A DNA stretch of 64,000 nucleotides from an uncultured Gammaproteobacteria bacterium (lineage in GTDB: Bacteria > Patescibacteriota > Patescibacteriia > Patescibacteriales > UBA12465): assembly GCA_964648205.1 (NCBI GenBank), contig CAZYNT010000001.1:47765-111764 (forward strand), given 5' to 3'. Below, piece after piece: positions 314 through 36,425 of the stretch. The notes beneath the pieces are model-generated. The model was not told where the DNA came from and searched no databases. It saw only the letters and a list, made by a program, of their open reading frames with translations. Each line of letters starts with the position of its first letter. Within the stretch, counting starts at the first letter, position 1. The position numbers and the translations under genes were made by a program.

Positions 314-503
314 TTCAAAATATTTTTGTTAAGGTTAAAGAATATTGTTAAAGAATAATAAAAAAATAAGTATAATTGCTATATTCTTGTCAATGCACGG
401 GATGGAGGTGTTGCGCCCCCGCTTGAGGATTTGGAGTCCCCTGTACTACTGTTATACTAATCCCGCAATCCTCCGGCTTGGCCGGAGTATATGATTAAAA
501 AAA

Positions 504-32184: not shown

Positions 32185-33129
32185 ATGCCTGATTCAAAAA
32201 GCGACAAAAAAATTCGCACTATTTTCATGGGAACGCCCGAGTTTTCCCTGCCCGGATTGGCGAGTTTGATTGCTTCTGCGAATTTTGAAATTGTCGGCAT
32301 TTTTACGCAACCCGATAAGCCGTTCGGACGCAATCAAATATTAACTCCGCCCCCAATAAAAGACCTGGCCTTAAAGCATAATTTAAAAATATTCCAACCA
32401 CTAAAAATAAGATCGGAAATTGAAACCATTAAAAATTTACAGCCCGATCTAATCGTGGTCATCGCTTACGGAAAAATTATTCCGCCAGAAATTTTAAGCA
32501 TTCCAAAATACTCTTGCATTAATGTTCATGCTTCCCTTTTGCCTCGTTACCGCGGTGCCGCCTGTCTGAACGCTCCGATCTTAAACGGCGACGGAGAAAC
32601 CGGGGTCACAATCATGCAAATGGAAGCCGGCCTTGATACCGGGCCGATTCTCAGGCAAGAAGCGATTAAACTAACGGGCGCGGAAACTTTGGAAACAGTC
32701 CACGACGAATTATCCACTCTGAGCGCTAAATTGTTAGTCCCAACTCTAAATGATTTTATTGCCGGAAAAATTACTCCGCAAATCCAAGATGATTCCCGAG
32801 CCAGCTATATCAAAACTTTAAAAAAGGAGGACGGTAAAATTGATTGGGCTAGACCGGCGCTTGAAATCGAAAGAATGGTGCGCGCTTACAACCCCTGGCC
32901 GGGAACTTACACCGTAAGCAACGGCAAGACAATAAAGCTGATATCGGTCGACCATGAAATTTTTAAATCAAATAATCATAAAACTGGAGAATCTTTCTTG
33001 GCCGATGGCCGCTTGGCCATCCAGTGTGGACAAGATTCTTTGGTTATATTAAAATTACAACTTGAGGGTAAAAAAATGATGGAGAGCGCCGAATTCTTGC
33101 GCGGTCACAAAATTGGTCCCTTCGTCTAA
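32185..33129 (+). CDS. fmt: Methionyl-tRNA formyltransferase
   Basis: Formyltransferase N-terminal domain (HASLLPRYRGAAC) and C-terminal domain. The last 5 codons and the stop lie inside a copy of the tRNA-Glu 5' end. Confidence 0.9.
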   Translation: MPDSKSDKKIRTIFMGTPEFSLPGLASLIASANFEIVGIFTQPDKPFGRNQILTPPPIKDLALKHNLKIFQPLKIRSEIETIKNLQPDLIVVIAYGKIIPPEILSIPKYSCINVHASLLPRYRGAACLNAPILNGDGETGVTIMQMEAGLDTGPILRQEAIKLTGAETLETVHDELSTLSAKLLVPTLNDFIAGKITPQIQDDSRASYIKTLKKEDGKIDWARPALEIERMVRAYNPWPGTYTVSNGKTIKLISVDHEIFKSNNHKTGESFLADGRLAIQCGQDSLVILKLQLEGKKMMESAEFLRGHKIGPFV

Positions 33130-33136
33130 CGGTTAG
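33113..33136 (+). repeat. Direct repeat copy 1: 24 nt identical to the 5' end of the tRNA-Glu gene (TTGGTCCCTTCGTCTAACGGTTAG)
   Basis: Exact 24/24 match to 33428-33451. It overlaps the fmt stop codon. Confidence 0.85.
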
Positions 33137-33179
33137 CTCGCCTCGCTTCGCTCCGGCGAAGCGGGGGCGCCAGATTGAT

Positions 33180-33425
33180 ATGTATAAAATTTACTGGCTA
33201 ATAAACGAAACTAAAGATAAAAGCTATATAGGCTTCACTAATAATTTAGAGCAACGGCTGCAAGAACATCGCTAAGGCAAAACTAAAACAACAAAAAACT
33301 TTGGCAAATTTTCTTTCTCTATCCTAGAAGAAGCAAACAATATAAATGAAGCCAGAAAAATGGAAAAATATTGGAAATCTGGCGGTGGAAGAAAAAAATT
33401 AAAAACAAAATTTAAATTAATATAA
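33180..33425 (+). pseudogene. GIY-YIG nuclease (YhbQ/UPF0213-like) interrupted by an in-frame TAA at 33273-33275
   Basis: N-terminal part MYKIYWLINETKDKSYIGFTNNLEQRLQEHR, then a stop, then in the same frame GKTKTTKNF...EARKMEKYWKSGGGRKKL. Read through, the two halves form a complete GIY-YIG / YhbQ-type protein. Confidence 0.6.
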
Positions 33426-33427
33426 AT

Positions 33428-33451
33428 TTGGTCCCTTCGTCTAACGGTTAG
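33428..33451 (+). repeat. Direct repeat copy 2 (start of the intact tRNA-Glu)
   Basis: Identical 24-mer. Confidence 0.85.
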
Positions 33452-33501
33452 GACGCCAGGTTCTCATCCTGGTAACAGGGGTTCGATTCCCCTAGGGACT
33501 A
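33430..33501 (+). tRNA. tRNA-Glu (anticodon CTC)
   Basis: GGTCCCT acceptor, D arm GTCTAACGGTTAGGAC, anticodon loop TTCTCAT, T arm AGGGGTTCGATTCCCCT. Closely resembles E. coli tRNA-Glu. Confidence 0.8.
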
Positions 33502-33507
33502 CTAACT

Positions 33508-33540
33508 AAAAACATCCAGTGAATACTGGATGTTTTTAGT
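33508..33540 (+). terminator. Intrinsic terminator after tRNA-Glu
   Basis: AAAAACATCCAGTGAATACTGGATGTTTTTAG: a 9-bp stem followed by a T-run. Confidence 0.75.
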
Positions 33541-33544
33541 TAAT

Positions 33545-33760
33545 AATTCGCAACTAGGGGAAGCGAACAGACGGCGAGCCTGCCTACCGGCAGGCAGGCG
33601 AGGCTCGAGTTCGAGTAGAGCGAGAGAGGATGAGCGACGATAAACGCGAGTTGGCGAGCGTTTAGCGGGTCCGTTAAGGGCAACGAGCGGCGCCGAATCA
33701 GGCGTCGTGAGGTGGAATCCACCTAGAGACTAGAGATAAAAATATCTCGTAAGGGTATTC
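33545..33760. other. GC-rich structured ~215-bp element of unknown function at the tRNA-proximal end of a low-GC island
   Basis: About 60% GC against an AT-rich background. Hairpins CCTGCCTACCGGCAGG (nested in CGAGCC...GGCTCG), GGTGGAATCCACC and GAGATAAAAATATCTC. No credible ORF; the 60-aa minus-strand ORF is rejected. Confidence 0.3.
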
Positions 33761-33766
33761 TTTTAA

Positions 33767-34420
33767 TTATTTCTCTAAAATTAATTCTCCGTTTTTAAGT
33801 GCTTGATCATGAGAGGGACAAGTTGGCCATGGGCGATCCAATACATCTTCAGAATCAAAAAGGAATATGAAACAATCACCAGGAGGAACTTTGCCGTAAT
33901 TATTTGTTAAAATATAATCCTTATCTTTCCAAATAATTCGTGAATAAATAGACCACGGATCAGTCCCAGTCTCAACTCGATGATGTATAACATGAAGACT
34001 AGCCTCTTTGCCATTGCACATATCCCCGGGATGAAACTCACGCACACCCTTCTCGGTTTGCAGATAAAGATTAGATTTATAGTCTGGCGCGTATTCTATA
34101 ATACTACTACCAATTGCCTCAAAAAATGAACTTAATAAAACATACTCATTATTTATAACAAAACCGTCGGCAATAACACTGCCTGATTTACTATGCGCGA
34201 ACAGACCGCCCCTTTTTGTTTTAAGAGCTTCTTCATCTACTTTTAAAAAAATCTCCTCACCACAAGCAAATATACGATAATCAACTCTTGATAAAAGTCT
34301 TTCCATTCCTTTGCTTTTCTCTTTATTTTTTAATACAAAAAATATACTTATGAAAATAATTAATACCGCCAAAAAGCATAAAATCCCAAATTTATAAATA
34401 TGGTTTTTTATTAATTTCAT
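33767..34420 (-). CDS. Hypothetical membrane-anchored protein (single N-terminal TM, extracytoplasmic domain); possible immunity-like partner of the upstream gene
   Basis: 217 aa with N-terminal hydrophobic helix FGILCFLAVLIIFISIFFVL. The start is 3 nt after the upstream gene's stop. Confidence 0.45.
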   Translation of the reverse strand: MKLIKNHIYKFGILCFLAVLIIFISIFFVLKNKEKSKGMERLLSRVDYRIFACGEEIFLKVDEEALKTKRGGLFAHSKSGSVIADGFVINNEYVLLSSFFEAIGSSIIEYAPDYKSNLYLQTEKGVREFHPGDMCNGKEASLHVIHHRVETGTDPWSIYSRIIWKDKDYILTNNYGKVPPGDCFIFLFDSEDVLDRPWPTCPSHDQALKNGELILEK

Positions 34421-35392: not shown

Positions 35393-35872
35393 TTAAATTT
35401 TTAATACATCTTGCTCATTTAATATCGACTTCAGCTCCTTGACTTTTATCAACAGAGTTTTAGCGTCTGCATGGGCTTGGTGTAATTCTGCTTCTGAAAT
35501 TCCGATAAAATCACCATATTCGATTCTATTTCTTTTCTTTCTCATTTGCTGAAATCTTTGAAACTCATTACCGAGTTCGCCATTAAGGAAGACGGCGGCG
35601 GCATTAATTACAATATAATGATGACCCTCTCCACTTGCTTTTACTCTATATCCGTTAATTAACAATATGGCTTCACAGCCTAATCTTATAGAATCGTAGA
35701 TATTATTGTACACAATGTCCTCGTCCCCGGTGCCTAATCCGGACAAGTTTTTATTTGCAAAATTATATAATCTATCAGCCTTCTCGATTTTTATTTCAAC
35801 CCCCTTTAAATTGGGTAAAAAAGGCTCAATGGAATTATTACTTAATAATGTTTGAATCTCTTGTAAAATCAT
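35393..35872 (-). CDS. HEPN-like helical protein (putative toxin partner of the upstream nucleotidyltransferase)
   Basis: 159 aa, predicted all-helical. Overlaps the upstream NTase gene by 35 nt. The canonical Rx4-6H motif is not clearly present (KRNRIEYG), so the assignment rests on the gene pairing. Confidence 0.4.
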   Translation of the reverse strand: MILQEIQTLLSNNSIEPFLPNLKGVEIKIEKADRLYNFANKNLSGLGTGDEDIVYNNIYDSIRLGCEAILLINGYRVKASGEGHHYIVINAAAVFLNGELGNEFQRFQQMRKKRNRIEYGDFIGISEAELHQAHADAKTLLIKVKELKSILNEQDVLKI

Positions 35873-36425
35873 ATGGATCCCCTTTTAATTTAATTATTGG
35901 TGATAAGAATATATTAGATATAAAATTATTTTTTTCTTTAATCTTTTTAATAATTTCCTGACTACTGTAAATATGATAATTTATTTCTCTGGCAATTTTG
36001 CCCTCTATAGAACTTACCATGATAGTAAGGGCCTCTTGATCGATGTTTCCAATTAACATTAAATCAATATCGCTATTATTATTTTCCGTTCCTCTGGCTA
36101 TTGATCCGAAAATAAAAGCGCATTCCACATTATCAAGTTTATCGATTAACTTTTTTAGTTCATTTTCTAAGCCGCTTGTTTTCGAAATAATGCTTTTTAT
36201 TTCTTCATAAAGTGGGTGTTCTTTATTTAATCTAAAAAAACGCATATTTCCGCGACGTTCATCTAATAAGATTTTATCATCCACCAAATTATCTAAATAT
36301 TTTTGATAATGACTCGGCTCTTTTTTTAGATTTTTAGCAATTTCTCTAAAATAATATTCTTTTTTTGAGTCTTCAAAAAAAAGCTTAAGGATTTCCCCTT
36401 CCCCGTTTTTTAAAAAATTTAGCAT
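35838..36425 (-). CDS. Winged-helix HTH plus minimal nucleotidyltransferase (MNT, Pol-beta superfamily) protein, putative antitoxin/regulator
   Basis: N-terminal HTH-like region (YYFREIAKNLKKEPSHYQKYLDNLVDDKIL) and NTase motif FGSIARGTENNNSDIDLMLIG. Confidence 0.7.
   Translation of the reverse strand: MLNFLKNGEGEILKLFFEDSKKEYYFREIAKNLKKEPSHYQKYLDNLVDDKILLDERRGNMRFFRLNKEHPLYEEIKSIISKTSGLENELKKLIDKLDNVECAFIFGSIARGTENNNSDIDLMLIGNIDQEALTIMVSSIEGKIAREINYHIYSSQEIIKKIKEKNNFISNIFLSPIIKLKGDPYDFTRDSNIIK

Follow-up and report, generated by a model that had tools for sequence, protein, structure and literature searches.

A small GIY-YIG nuclease gene and a GC-rich hairpin lodged in a partial duplication of tRNA-Glu: a tRNA-invading mini-cassette?

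How does a bacterial genome come to carry the beginning of a tRNA gene twice, on either side of a nuclease gene interrupted by a stop codon? This question is raised by a locus in a stretch of 64,000 nt from contig CAZYNT010000001.1 of an uncultured member of the Patescibacteria, hereafter called the window. There, fmt, the gene for methionyl-tRNA formyltransferase, is followed by a partial copy of tRNA-Glu, a GC-rich hairpin, a GIY-YIG nuclease gene and the intact tRNA-Glu. An earlier note, made from the window alone, had seen in it the footprint of an insertion or homing event that duplicated its target, remodelled the end of fmt and then decayed. We come to another view of its nature and age. 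With a confidence somewhat above even, we consider the locus as one copy of a mini-cassette that invades tRNA genes, is of homing type and restores its target, and that consists of a GIY-YIG nuclease gene of about 80 amino acids (aa) and a GC hairpin set in a partial duplication of tRNA-Glu. The basis for this is an insertion polymorphism, the architecture, its recurrence at many tRNAs, its conservation and a covariation. The central features, in window positions, are the following.

32185 to 33129, plus strand: fmt, methionyl-tRNA formyltransferase (Pfam Formyl_trans_N and Formyl_trans_C; from the list of open reading frames)
33113 to 33136, plus strand: upstream copy of the repeat, or 5' remnant (2 nt of flank, then tRNA-Glu positions 1-22 at 33115-33136)
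33137 to 33170, plus strand: GC-rich hairpin after remnant position 22 (34 nt, 79% GC; arms 33141-33151 and 33156-33166)
33166 to 33176, plus strand: degenerate continuation of the remnant, tRNA positions 23-33 (GGCGCCAGATT against GACGCCAGGTT; by inspection and alignment)
33180 to 33425, plus strand: catalytic-domain-only GIY-YIG gene of 81 codons (PF01541), with one in-frame TAA at 33273-33275
33430 to 33502, plus strand: intact tRNA-Glu(CTC) (ARAGORN; Rfam, 62.5 bits)

The 24-nt sequence TTGGTCCCTTCGTCTAACGGTTAG occurs exactly twice in the window, at 33113-33136 and 33428-33451, and forms the perfect direct repeat that had been described (0 expected in 100 shuffles); it extends imperfectly to 34 nt (33109-33142 and 33424-33457, 91%). 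The downstream copy contains the first 22 nt of the intact tRNA-Glu, the sequence of which is identical to that of the corresponding tRNA at an empty site in a relative (L006, see below). The 291 nt between the two copies hold only the hairpin and the nuclease open reading frame (ORF), which takes up 246 of them and ends 4 nt before the start of tRNA-Glu, on the same strand. The hairpin announced by the earlier note is indeed present, but its length of 43 nt was approximate: the GC-rich stretch covers 34 nt, with its 79% GC to be compared with a background of 41% in the window. The degenerate continuation of the remnant overlaps the 3' end of this hairpin and stops 3 nt short of the nuclease ATG; its counterpart in another relative, L081, is a clean copy of tRNA positions 23-37. 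Within the window we found no second GIY-YIG gene, no second hairpin of the same sequence and no partial duplicates at the other five tRNAs. Rfam returned only tRNA, for the whole window at the gathering threshold and for 32900-34000 at E up to 10, with no intron, tmRNA or known hairpin family, and the same search on eight related loci also gave tRNAs only.

Whether the site can be empty was answered by the eight closest Patescibacteria relatives with Fmt retrieved by a genome scan (L001-L008), whose Fmt proteins are 49-68% identical to that of the window. In all of them tRNA-Glu(CTC) lies directly after fmt, from an overlap of 22 nt to a gap of 108 nt, and the junction contains neither a GIY-YIG gene nor a duplicated 5' end. 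Since these sites are empty, the window carries an insertion at the junction of fmt and tRNA-Glu, as had been supposed. On the other hand, a search with the GIY-YIG protein, also proposed by the earlier note, gave 14 homologues with 54-65% identity, all of them intact. The same layout with an intact gene is found at the same site in L084/L088 and in L087, and L095 and L096 also carry the cassette there, likewise intact. The neighbourhood in L084 is that of the window (LigB/Memo, def, fmt, cassette, tRNA-Glu), and L081 combines another upstream neighbourhood, with glycosyltransferases, with the same local layout beside tRNA-Glu. The fmt-tRNA-Glu site is therefore polymorphic, empty in L001-L008 and occupied in the window and in L084/L088, L087, L095 and L096; on a rough Fmt tree the two kinds of genome are intermixed, which needs at least two gains or several losses.

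The occupied sites also inform on the age of the arrangement. Between the window, L084 and L087, nucleotide identity amounts to 96-100% in the tRNA, 92-93.5% in the non-coding remnant and hairpin, 72-79% in the GIY-YIG ORF and 70-77% in the 3' part of fmt. Because the remnant and hairpin exceed both the ORF and fmt in identity, they would be either more strongly constrained than the two coding regions or homogenised against the tRNA. The hairpin is near-identical in L084, L087 and L088, and related hairpins stand at the same position in L081, L085, L090, L093, L096 and L102, which suggests that it is a conserved cis element of the cassette. The window copy is common to the L084 and L087 lineages and is therefore old. 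A decayed footprint, as formerly proposed, does not agree with these data: the same duplicated arrangement is conserved in L084/L088 and L087, an outcome that the earlier note itself had named as refuting its reading.

How far does this layout extend beyond tRNA-Glu? A metagenome scan with the family alignment yielded 80 homologue loci. At 67 of them a tRNA on the same strand lies within 100 nt of the ORF, downstream of it in 48 cases and upstream in 19; the tRNAs represent at least 12 amino-acid identities, among them Glu, Met, Leu, Asp, Arg, Gly, Asn, Ala, Pro and Lys, and the closest homologues adjoin tRNA-Glu (CTC or TTC). At loci with a downstream tRNA, the beginning of that very tRNA, 12-24 nt or more, is repeated within the 200 nt before the ORF, whatever the identity of the tRNA; this copy typically measures 22 nt (Glu, Asp, Arg, Asn), 24 nt (Leu) or 15-16 nt (Met). 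This 5' copy is followed by a GC-rich hairpin (ends of the Glu-group consensus, CCCGCCTCG...CGAGGCGGG), after which the tRNA sequence often resumes. The window has the family layout, with the ORF near a same-strand tRNA and, in succession, the remnant at 33115-33136, the hairpin at 33137-33170 and the resumed sequence at 33166-33176. The combination of a partial tRNA copy and a GC hairpin was seen at Glu, Met, Asp, Arg, Leu, Asn and Ala loci. The duplication and the hairpin described by the earlier note belong to the standard equipment of a large family of tRNA-linked cassettes.

Variants of this layout are also found. At the mirror-image loci, where the tRNA is upstream, the intact tRNA is followed by the ORF and then by a 3' remnant that the hairpin module splits in the T loop or in the anticodon loop; at tRNA-Gly, the hairpin module stands between the tRNA and the ORF. 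About 19 of 82 loci contain a double-hairpin module, CCGCCCA...TGGGCGAGGCTCGCCC...GGGCGGC, in which 10 of the 20 predicted pairs show two-sided compensatory changes and almost no pair is broken; no Rfam family matched the double-hairpin or the cassette modules at the loci searched. Several homologues end in ...PSSNG*, which is the translation of tRNA-Glu positions 5-22 (TCG TCT AAC GGT TAG): these ORFs run into the tRNA and stop at the D-loop TAG (positions 20-22), where the 5' remnant usually ends too. ORF and tRNA thus appear, from their sequences, to be tightly coupled. Tandem copies of the ORF were observed in five loci, L130 (1317-1814), L086, L104, L123 and L127, with a unit composed of the 3' part of the tRNA, a terminator, the GIY-YIG ORF and the hairpin-split remnant, followed again by a terminator and a GIY-YIG ORF; such arrays suggest repeated invasion or unequal crossing-over. 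Clustered at 50% identity, the protein family itself comprises 410 clusters for E ≤ 1e-10 and 4846 for E ≤ 1e-3, almost all of about 80-130 aa.

The hairpin-split remnants have a practical side. In L120 and L128, two ARAGORN calls of tRNA-Arg(CCT) flank the GIY-YIG ORF, one of them apparently a remnant in which the hairpin module was read as an intron-like insert; remnants of this sort are likely to give rise to false tRNA annotations. The family alignment matched nothing when viral contigs were scanned, and a viral origin was set aside on this ground. In the full texts searched, a coverage outside which most subscription journals lie, the arrangement of a small GIY-YIG gene beside tRNA remnants is undescribed. 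The cassette type is widespread and, it appears, undescribed.

The other side of the intact tRNA brings the evidence on how the arrangement arose. Three further features lie there in the window.

33500 to 33545, plus strand: AT-rich stem-loop with a T run (ACATCCAGT/ACTGGATGT and TTTTT; inverted repeat), a probable tRNA terminator
33554 to 33710, plus strand: GC-rich (about 62%) structured element (157 nt; folding z = -2.8)
33711 to 33732, plus strand: 3' remnant, a degenerate tRNA-Glu 3' end (GGTGGAATCCACCTAGAGACTA against GGGGTTCGATTCCCCTAGGGACTA; 13/18 match)

The complete order in the window is therefore fmt, tRNA-Glu 1-22, hairpin, degenerate 23-33, GIY-YIG gene with one TAA, intact tRNA-Glu, the terminator-like stem-loop, GC-rich element and degenerate tRNA 3' end. 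The match of the 3' remnant, about 210 nt downstream of the tRNA, was reached by none of 200 shuffles (p<0.005), and clearer 3' remnants exist in L084 (17/18), L093 (17/18), L095 (18/18), L089 (16/18) and L081 (15/18). In L096, the acceptor strand GGTCCCA of the 5' remnant pairs perfectly with TGGGACT of the 3' remnant, and the intact tRNA between them has GGCCCTT and AAGGGCT, so that the remnants and the intact tRNA differ by three covarying acceptor pairs. In L089 the remnants have C3-G70 and the intact tRNA T3-A70, in L152 the T stem of the remnant has undergone a compensatory change from G-C to A-T, and in L081 the 5' remnant reaches position 37 and the 3' one begins at about 38. These sequences suggest that the nuclease gene and a complete tRNA entered a resident tRNA gene together, as one segment, and that the halves of the resident gene were left on both sides. 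Remnants that pair with each other yet differ from the intact tRNA between them, as seen in two loci, are what is expected from the insertion of an imported tRNA. We also considered that the upstream copy and the 3' remnant might together form a split, permuted or intron-containing tRNA; this was rejected in view of the complete tRNA between them, of the terminator-like hairpin after it and of the imperfect pairing of the window remnants.

The stem-loop at 33500-33545 has equivalents after tRNA-Glu in relatives and was left unflagged by a consensus terminator scan. The element at 33554-33710 starts with an inverted copy of the tRNA T arm (CTAGGGGAAGCGAAC), holds the hairpin motifs CCTGCCTACCGGCAGGCAGG and GCGAGGCTCG and has a closing stem; loosely homologous GC-rich elements come after tRNA-Glu in L084, L093 and L091, and no Rfam match was obtained for 33554-33732. 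A similarity of L001 to this element is only suggestive; if it were a relic, it would argue for loss of the cassette there. In L005, a GC-rich palindromic element of 108 nt (L005 4876-4983) separates fmt from tRNA-Glu with no GIY-YIG gene; the motif CCTACCGGCAGGCAGG is common to this element and to window 33583-33598, and the element may be a hairpin module on its own. In L084, a gene for a serine recombinase (Resolvase/Recombinase/Zn_ribbon_recom) and one for a REP_ORF2-G2P replication protein (L084 3436-6214) lie directly downstream of the tRNA-Glu cassette, and look like a second mobile element using the same tRNA locus.

What does the ORF of the cassette encode, and is it alive in the window? 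With the stop read as X, the window frame matches Pfam PF01541 (E=1.4e-14, 54.6 bits against a cut-off of 22.6). Its sole defect is the TAA at 33273-33275, hence the window copy has no intact translatable gene; in this the earlier description of a complete gene with a single in-frame stop proved accurate. All 17 invariant residues of the family are retained. The motif residues (GIY-type Tyr, YIG Tyr/Gly, Arg, His/Tyr, Glu) correspond to Y5, Y16, G18, R26, H30 and E62, which vary little or not at all across 15-17 homologues, those of catalytic type (Y16, G18, R26, H30, E62) being invariant; the window copy has every one, and their catalytic roles may be assigned by analogy with I-TevI. The 81 aa are wholly taken up by the catalytic domain (Pfam positions 2-74 of 78), with no DNA-binding extension, and the best family members also measure about 80-90 aa. 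A profile search retrieved the UPF0213 protein BH0048 (1ZG2, E=2e-4) and the catalytic domain of I-TevI (1MK0). No NCBIfam model exceeded its cut-off, the only match being TIGR01453 (34 bits against 56). An AF2 model, made for the homologue P0002 and not for the window protein, has a pLDDT of 92; with it, Foldseek found the I-TevI catalytic domain 1LN0 (TM 0.60), UPF0213 1ZG2 at rank 2, Slx1 and UvrC-N, all with E >0.01. From this model and the profiles, the nuclease would match the I-TevI catalytic domain and UPF0213 in fold and sequence. The former assignment to the YhbQ/UPF0213 type may be kept in the sense of a catalytic-domain-only, UPF0213-like protein: the size fits that family, and the sequence similarity is weak. 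PADLOC gave only weak matches (PDC-S14, UzuA), confined to the shared GIY-YIG core, and membership in a defence system was discarded for this reason.

The stop codon itself calls for caution. The commonest residue at its column is Ser (23 of 77 sequences), and TCA becomes TAA in one step; internal stops occur in only 2-3 of 82 homologous ORFs. The TAA is either a recent inactivation or a base-call error. Four other sequencing runs gave five contigs of this strain (L165-L169), which are 100% identical to the window and all end at 33051-33067 or at 33475-33497; none of them spans the cassette, and L169 has 24 nt of unrelated sequence at the break. These breaks beside the cassette could reflect population heterogeneity or an assembly problem. 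An exact-protein look-up of Fmt and of the 31-aa N-terminal nuclease fragment gave no match. The window copy is an ordinary member of the family, perhaps dead. The locus is, in sum, an old conserved arrangement with one recent nonsense codon, or a base-call error, and not a random scar.

The end of fmt was the third point of the earlier note, and its last five codons and TAA stop (...GGT CCC TTC GTC TAA) are indeed read inside the 5' tRNA remnant. The Fmt tail, ...RGHKIGPFV*, is 2-3 residues shorter than the usual ...GHxxxxGxxLx* (13 relatives compared) and departs from it after ...RGHK, IGPFV* being encoded by the remnant. In the other occupied genomes, however, fmt has its own stop and a spacer of 16-26 nt before the remnant (...AIGLILQ* in L084, ...IIGSVLE* in L087); the spacers ahead of the remnant cannot be aligned among the window, L084 and L087. 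Conversely, in L001, the closest cassette-free relative, fmt overlaps the real tRNA-Glu by 22 nt (L001 4927-4948, same strand), uses the D-loop TAG as its stop and ends in ...GYKALSSNG*. Because occupied relatives keep their own stop and an unoccupied one reads into the tRNA, the read-through in the window need not stem from the insertion, and a remodelling of fmt by it is not required. The read-through would either have arisen separately in this lineage, by a deletion of about 50 nt that removed the last codons, the stop and the spacer, or be an overlap predating the insertion. In any case, the 5' remnant now provides the stop codon of an essential gene in this genome, and this dependence of fmt locks the remnant in even if the cassette dies.

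How could such a cassette spread? For the cassette we infer a nuclease activity, a target specificity and a homing step, which could be linked as follows. The nuclease would break a cassette-free tRNA gene, and repair would copy the cassette from an occupied allele, with the tRNA sequence itself serving as homology. The replacement tRNA, or tRNA part, brought by the cassette would keep the tRNA functional, and the displaced resident pieces would be the flanking remnants. By interrupting the remnant, the hairpin may disrupt the nuclease site there and block re-cleavage, a form of immunity. Alternatively, it might interrupt the direct repeat and so protect against repeat-mediated deletion, be a structure-specific recognition or regulatory site of the nuclease, or exert a translational control as in T4 segB, mobE and I-TevI. 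The nonsense codon of the window copy would have been gained recently, as expected late in a homing cycle, unless an error of base calling produced the TAA.

A broader hypothesis, which we put forward as tentative and rather less probable than not, is that these cassettes are a new class of autonomous mini mobile elements, found mainly in Patescibacteria. Their GIY-YIG protein of about 80 aa and covarying hairpin would target D-arm, anticodon-loop or T-loop segments of at least a dozen isoacceptor families. They would bring their own replacement tRNA or part of it, so that the gene would be split and its function never lost, and the hairpin would be the determinant of recognition or immunity. 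Specificity in a nuclease devoid of a DNA-binding domain could then come from a cut of Slx1 type that depends on DNA structure, at a hairpin or cruciform.

Several observations weigh against the idea of a homing cassette. Among the window, L084 and L087, the aa identity of the GIY-YIG proteins (59-63%) tracks that of Fmt (60-69%), and within the clade of the window the element looks vertically inherited rather than actively moving. Among the occupied and empty sites found, no near-isogenic pair fixes the exact inserted segment. Only 12 of the 49 loci with this type of cassette, the window among them, have a detectable 3' remnant, and the 5' and 3' remnants of L081 do not pair with each other. 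We know of no precedent for sequence-specific homing by a bare catalytic domain without a DNA-binding domain. The intact tRNA at an occupied locus should moreover stay a target, unless recognition needs a further factor. Finally, the strong conservation of the remnant and hairpin could mean a host or RNA-level function instead of selfish mobility.

This last point leads to the explanation that survives best besides the homing cassette, although we regard it as unlikely: a domesticated system of tRNA loci, inserted long ago and kept by selection, either with decoy attachment sites and a nuclease guarding tRNA genes or for the repair and upkeep of highly transcribed tRNA genes. tRNA genes are favoured integration sites, and the serine-recombinase/Rep element of L084 stands right beside the same tRNA. 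The conservation of the non-coding remnant and hairpin, the overwhelmingly intact ORFs, a descent that looks vertical in the clade of the window and the weak PADLOC matches to PDC-S14 and UzuA, limited to the GIY-YIG core, would suit such a system. It accounts poorly, however, for a patchy distribution with clean empty sites, for tandem copies and for many different tRNAs with different breakpoints. Remnants derived from a tRNA other than the intact one point to import rather than to evolution in situ, and the window copy has been inactivated without visible consequence.

A role at the RNA level, which would be compatible with a homing cassette, is very unlikely as the explanation of the locus. 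Here the remnants and hairpins would be tRNA-like leaders or trailers and the nuclease mRNA would ride on the tRNA transcript, the hairpin throttling translation or stabilising the RNA. One more feature of the window comes in here.

33027 to 33055, plus strand: promoter-like site TGGACA-17-TAAAAT inside the 3' end of fmt (10/12; consensus match only)

This site, upstream of the remnant, is a candidate start for a transcript of remnant, hairpin, ORF and tRNA, and the terminator-like hairpin comes only after the tRNA; the sequence of the promoter-like site is conserved in L084 and L001, where it is coding too. The same-strand arrangement, often with an overlap of ORF and tRNA, and the compensatory changes that preserve the hairpins also agree with an RNA role, and in T4, upstream RNA hairpins regulate the expression of the homing endonuclease genes segB, mobE and I-TevI-III by hiding the ribosome-binding site (PMC2988022). 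Against this, the hairpin is separated from the ATG by as little as 10 or by more than 100 nt, the module is downstream of the ORF at the mirror-image loci, the folding of the window leader is unexceptional (z = -1.7), and the duplication of tRNA pieces would be left unexplained.

We give as little credence to a single idiosyncratic event of insertion or homing, which would have duplicated its target, rewritten the C-terminus of fmt and left junk now decaying. The empty sites in relatives, the nonsense codon and the end of fmt within the repeat had made it attractive, but L084/L088, L087, L095 and L096 have kept this architecture, and it is met again at many other tRNAs. Conservation is higher in the remnant and hairpin than in the coding sequences, and the ORF keeps every invariant residue, with one codon lost. 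In the other occupied genomes fmt keeps its own stop, and it reads into the true tRNA in the unoccupied L001. A nucleotide divergence of 28-41% in the ORF and fmt also argues against a very recent transfer among the relatives. Lastly, an artefact of assembly or base calling, behind the repeat or the TAA, has a slim chance: the contigs of this strain from four other runs all stop to one side or the other of the cassette, as in a region hard to assemble, with the 24 unrelated nt of L169, and the TAA is one base away from the commonest codon class at its column, but the duplicated architecture in independent assemblies of other species shows that the repeat is real.

Two observations concern other parts of the window. 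A tRNA at 396-466, minus strand, was found by Rfam (47.1 bits) and unreported by ARAGORN. At 35393-36425, minus strand, two overlapping genes encode products of 195 and 159 aa; the 195-aa product has family matches to NTP_transf_2 (weak) and Polbeta in an identical Logan contig, and from its sequence the pair looks like a toxin-antitoxin pair of the nucleotidyltransferase/HEPN type.

If the cassette indeed behaves as proposed, the tRNA genes of streamlined bacteria would be invaded, beyond integrases, by a very small homing-type element consisting of a nuclease gene of about 250 nt and a hairpin. The problem of inserting into an essential gene would be solved by bringing a spare copy of it, and the cassette would be, in bacteria, a natural example of a gene drive that restores its target. 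In metagenome-assembled genomes, the same would explain many calls of a 'partial tRNA' and many annotations of a 'GIY-YIG family protein' beside tRNAs. It would also pose the biochemical question of how a bare GIY-YIG domain of 80 aa finds its site and what the conserved hairpin does.

In none of the closest known systems do a domain-only nuclease and a conserved hairpin module come together with a tRNA gene that is split and replaced. Free-standing GIY-YIG homing endonuclease genes of T4-like phages lie beside or between tRNA genes, are present or absent between relatives and spread by a break followed by gene conversion (PMC2988022; see also PMC13096335). Like SegB of the T4 tRNA cluster, the cassette has a GIY-YIG gene next to a tRNA and a presence/absence polymorphism. 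However, SegB resides in an intergenic spacer, with no split or duplicated tRNA gene and no GC hairpin module in a tRNA remnant, and its host is a phage whereas that of the cassette is cellular (Patescibacteria and others). Seg proteins have about 200 aa or more, with a DNA-binding domain, and in contrast the cassette nuclease is a catalytic domain of about 80 aa only. UPF0213/YhbQ proteins (COG2827; B. halodurans BH0048, PDB 1ZG2) are of the same size class and fold, but the similarity is weak and, in the literature searched, neither tRNA linkage nor mobility of YhbQ was found.

With integrase islands and prophages, the cassette has in common the tRNA target, the regeneration of an intact tRNA and, at the far end, a direct repeat made of part of the tRNA; it differs by a size of about 300 nt, by the lack of an integrase and by the hairpin that interrupts the remnant. 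Integrases usually duplicate the 3' end of the tRNA, whereas the 5' end is duplicated in the window, and an integrase-mediated island was dismissed since the 291 nt between the repeat copies contain no gene for a recombinase of the tyrosine or serine type. Group I introns with homing endonuclease genes in tRNA anticodon loops also associate a nuclease ORF with a tRNA, and the breakpoint 37/38 of L081 falls in the anticodon loop. Yet the cassette has no ribozyme and its tRNA is restored by DNA duplication, not by splicing; a group I intron was excluded by the lack of any Rfam intron match at E up to 10, by too little non-coding sequence and by the complete tRNA after the ORF.

A last parallel can be drawn with the mitochondria of Allomyces, where Paquin et al. 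(1994) reportedly described a GIY-YIG ORF accompanied by a foreign 3' end of atp6. There, the target is a mitochondrial protein-coding gene to which the ORF is fused in frame, whereas the cassette is found at a bacterial tRNA gene of which either end can be replaced, with a hairpin in the leftover fragment. In both, a GIY-YIG ORF travels with a copy of the gene part that it displaces, so that the gene is functional and the native fragment stays behind as a pseudogene piece.

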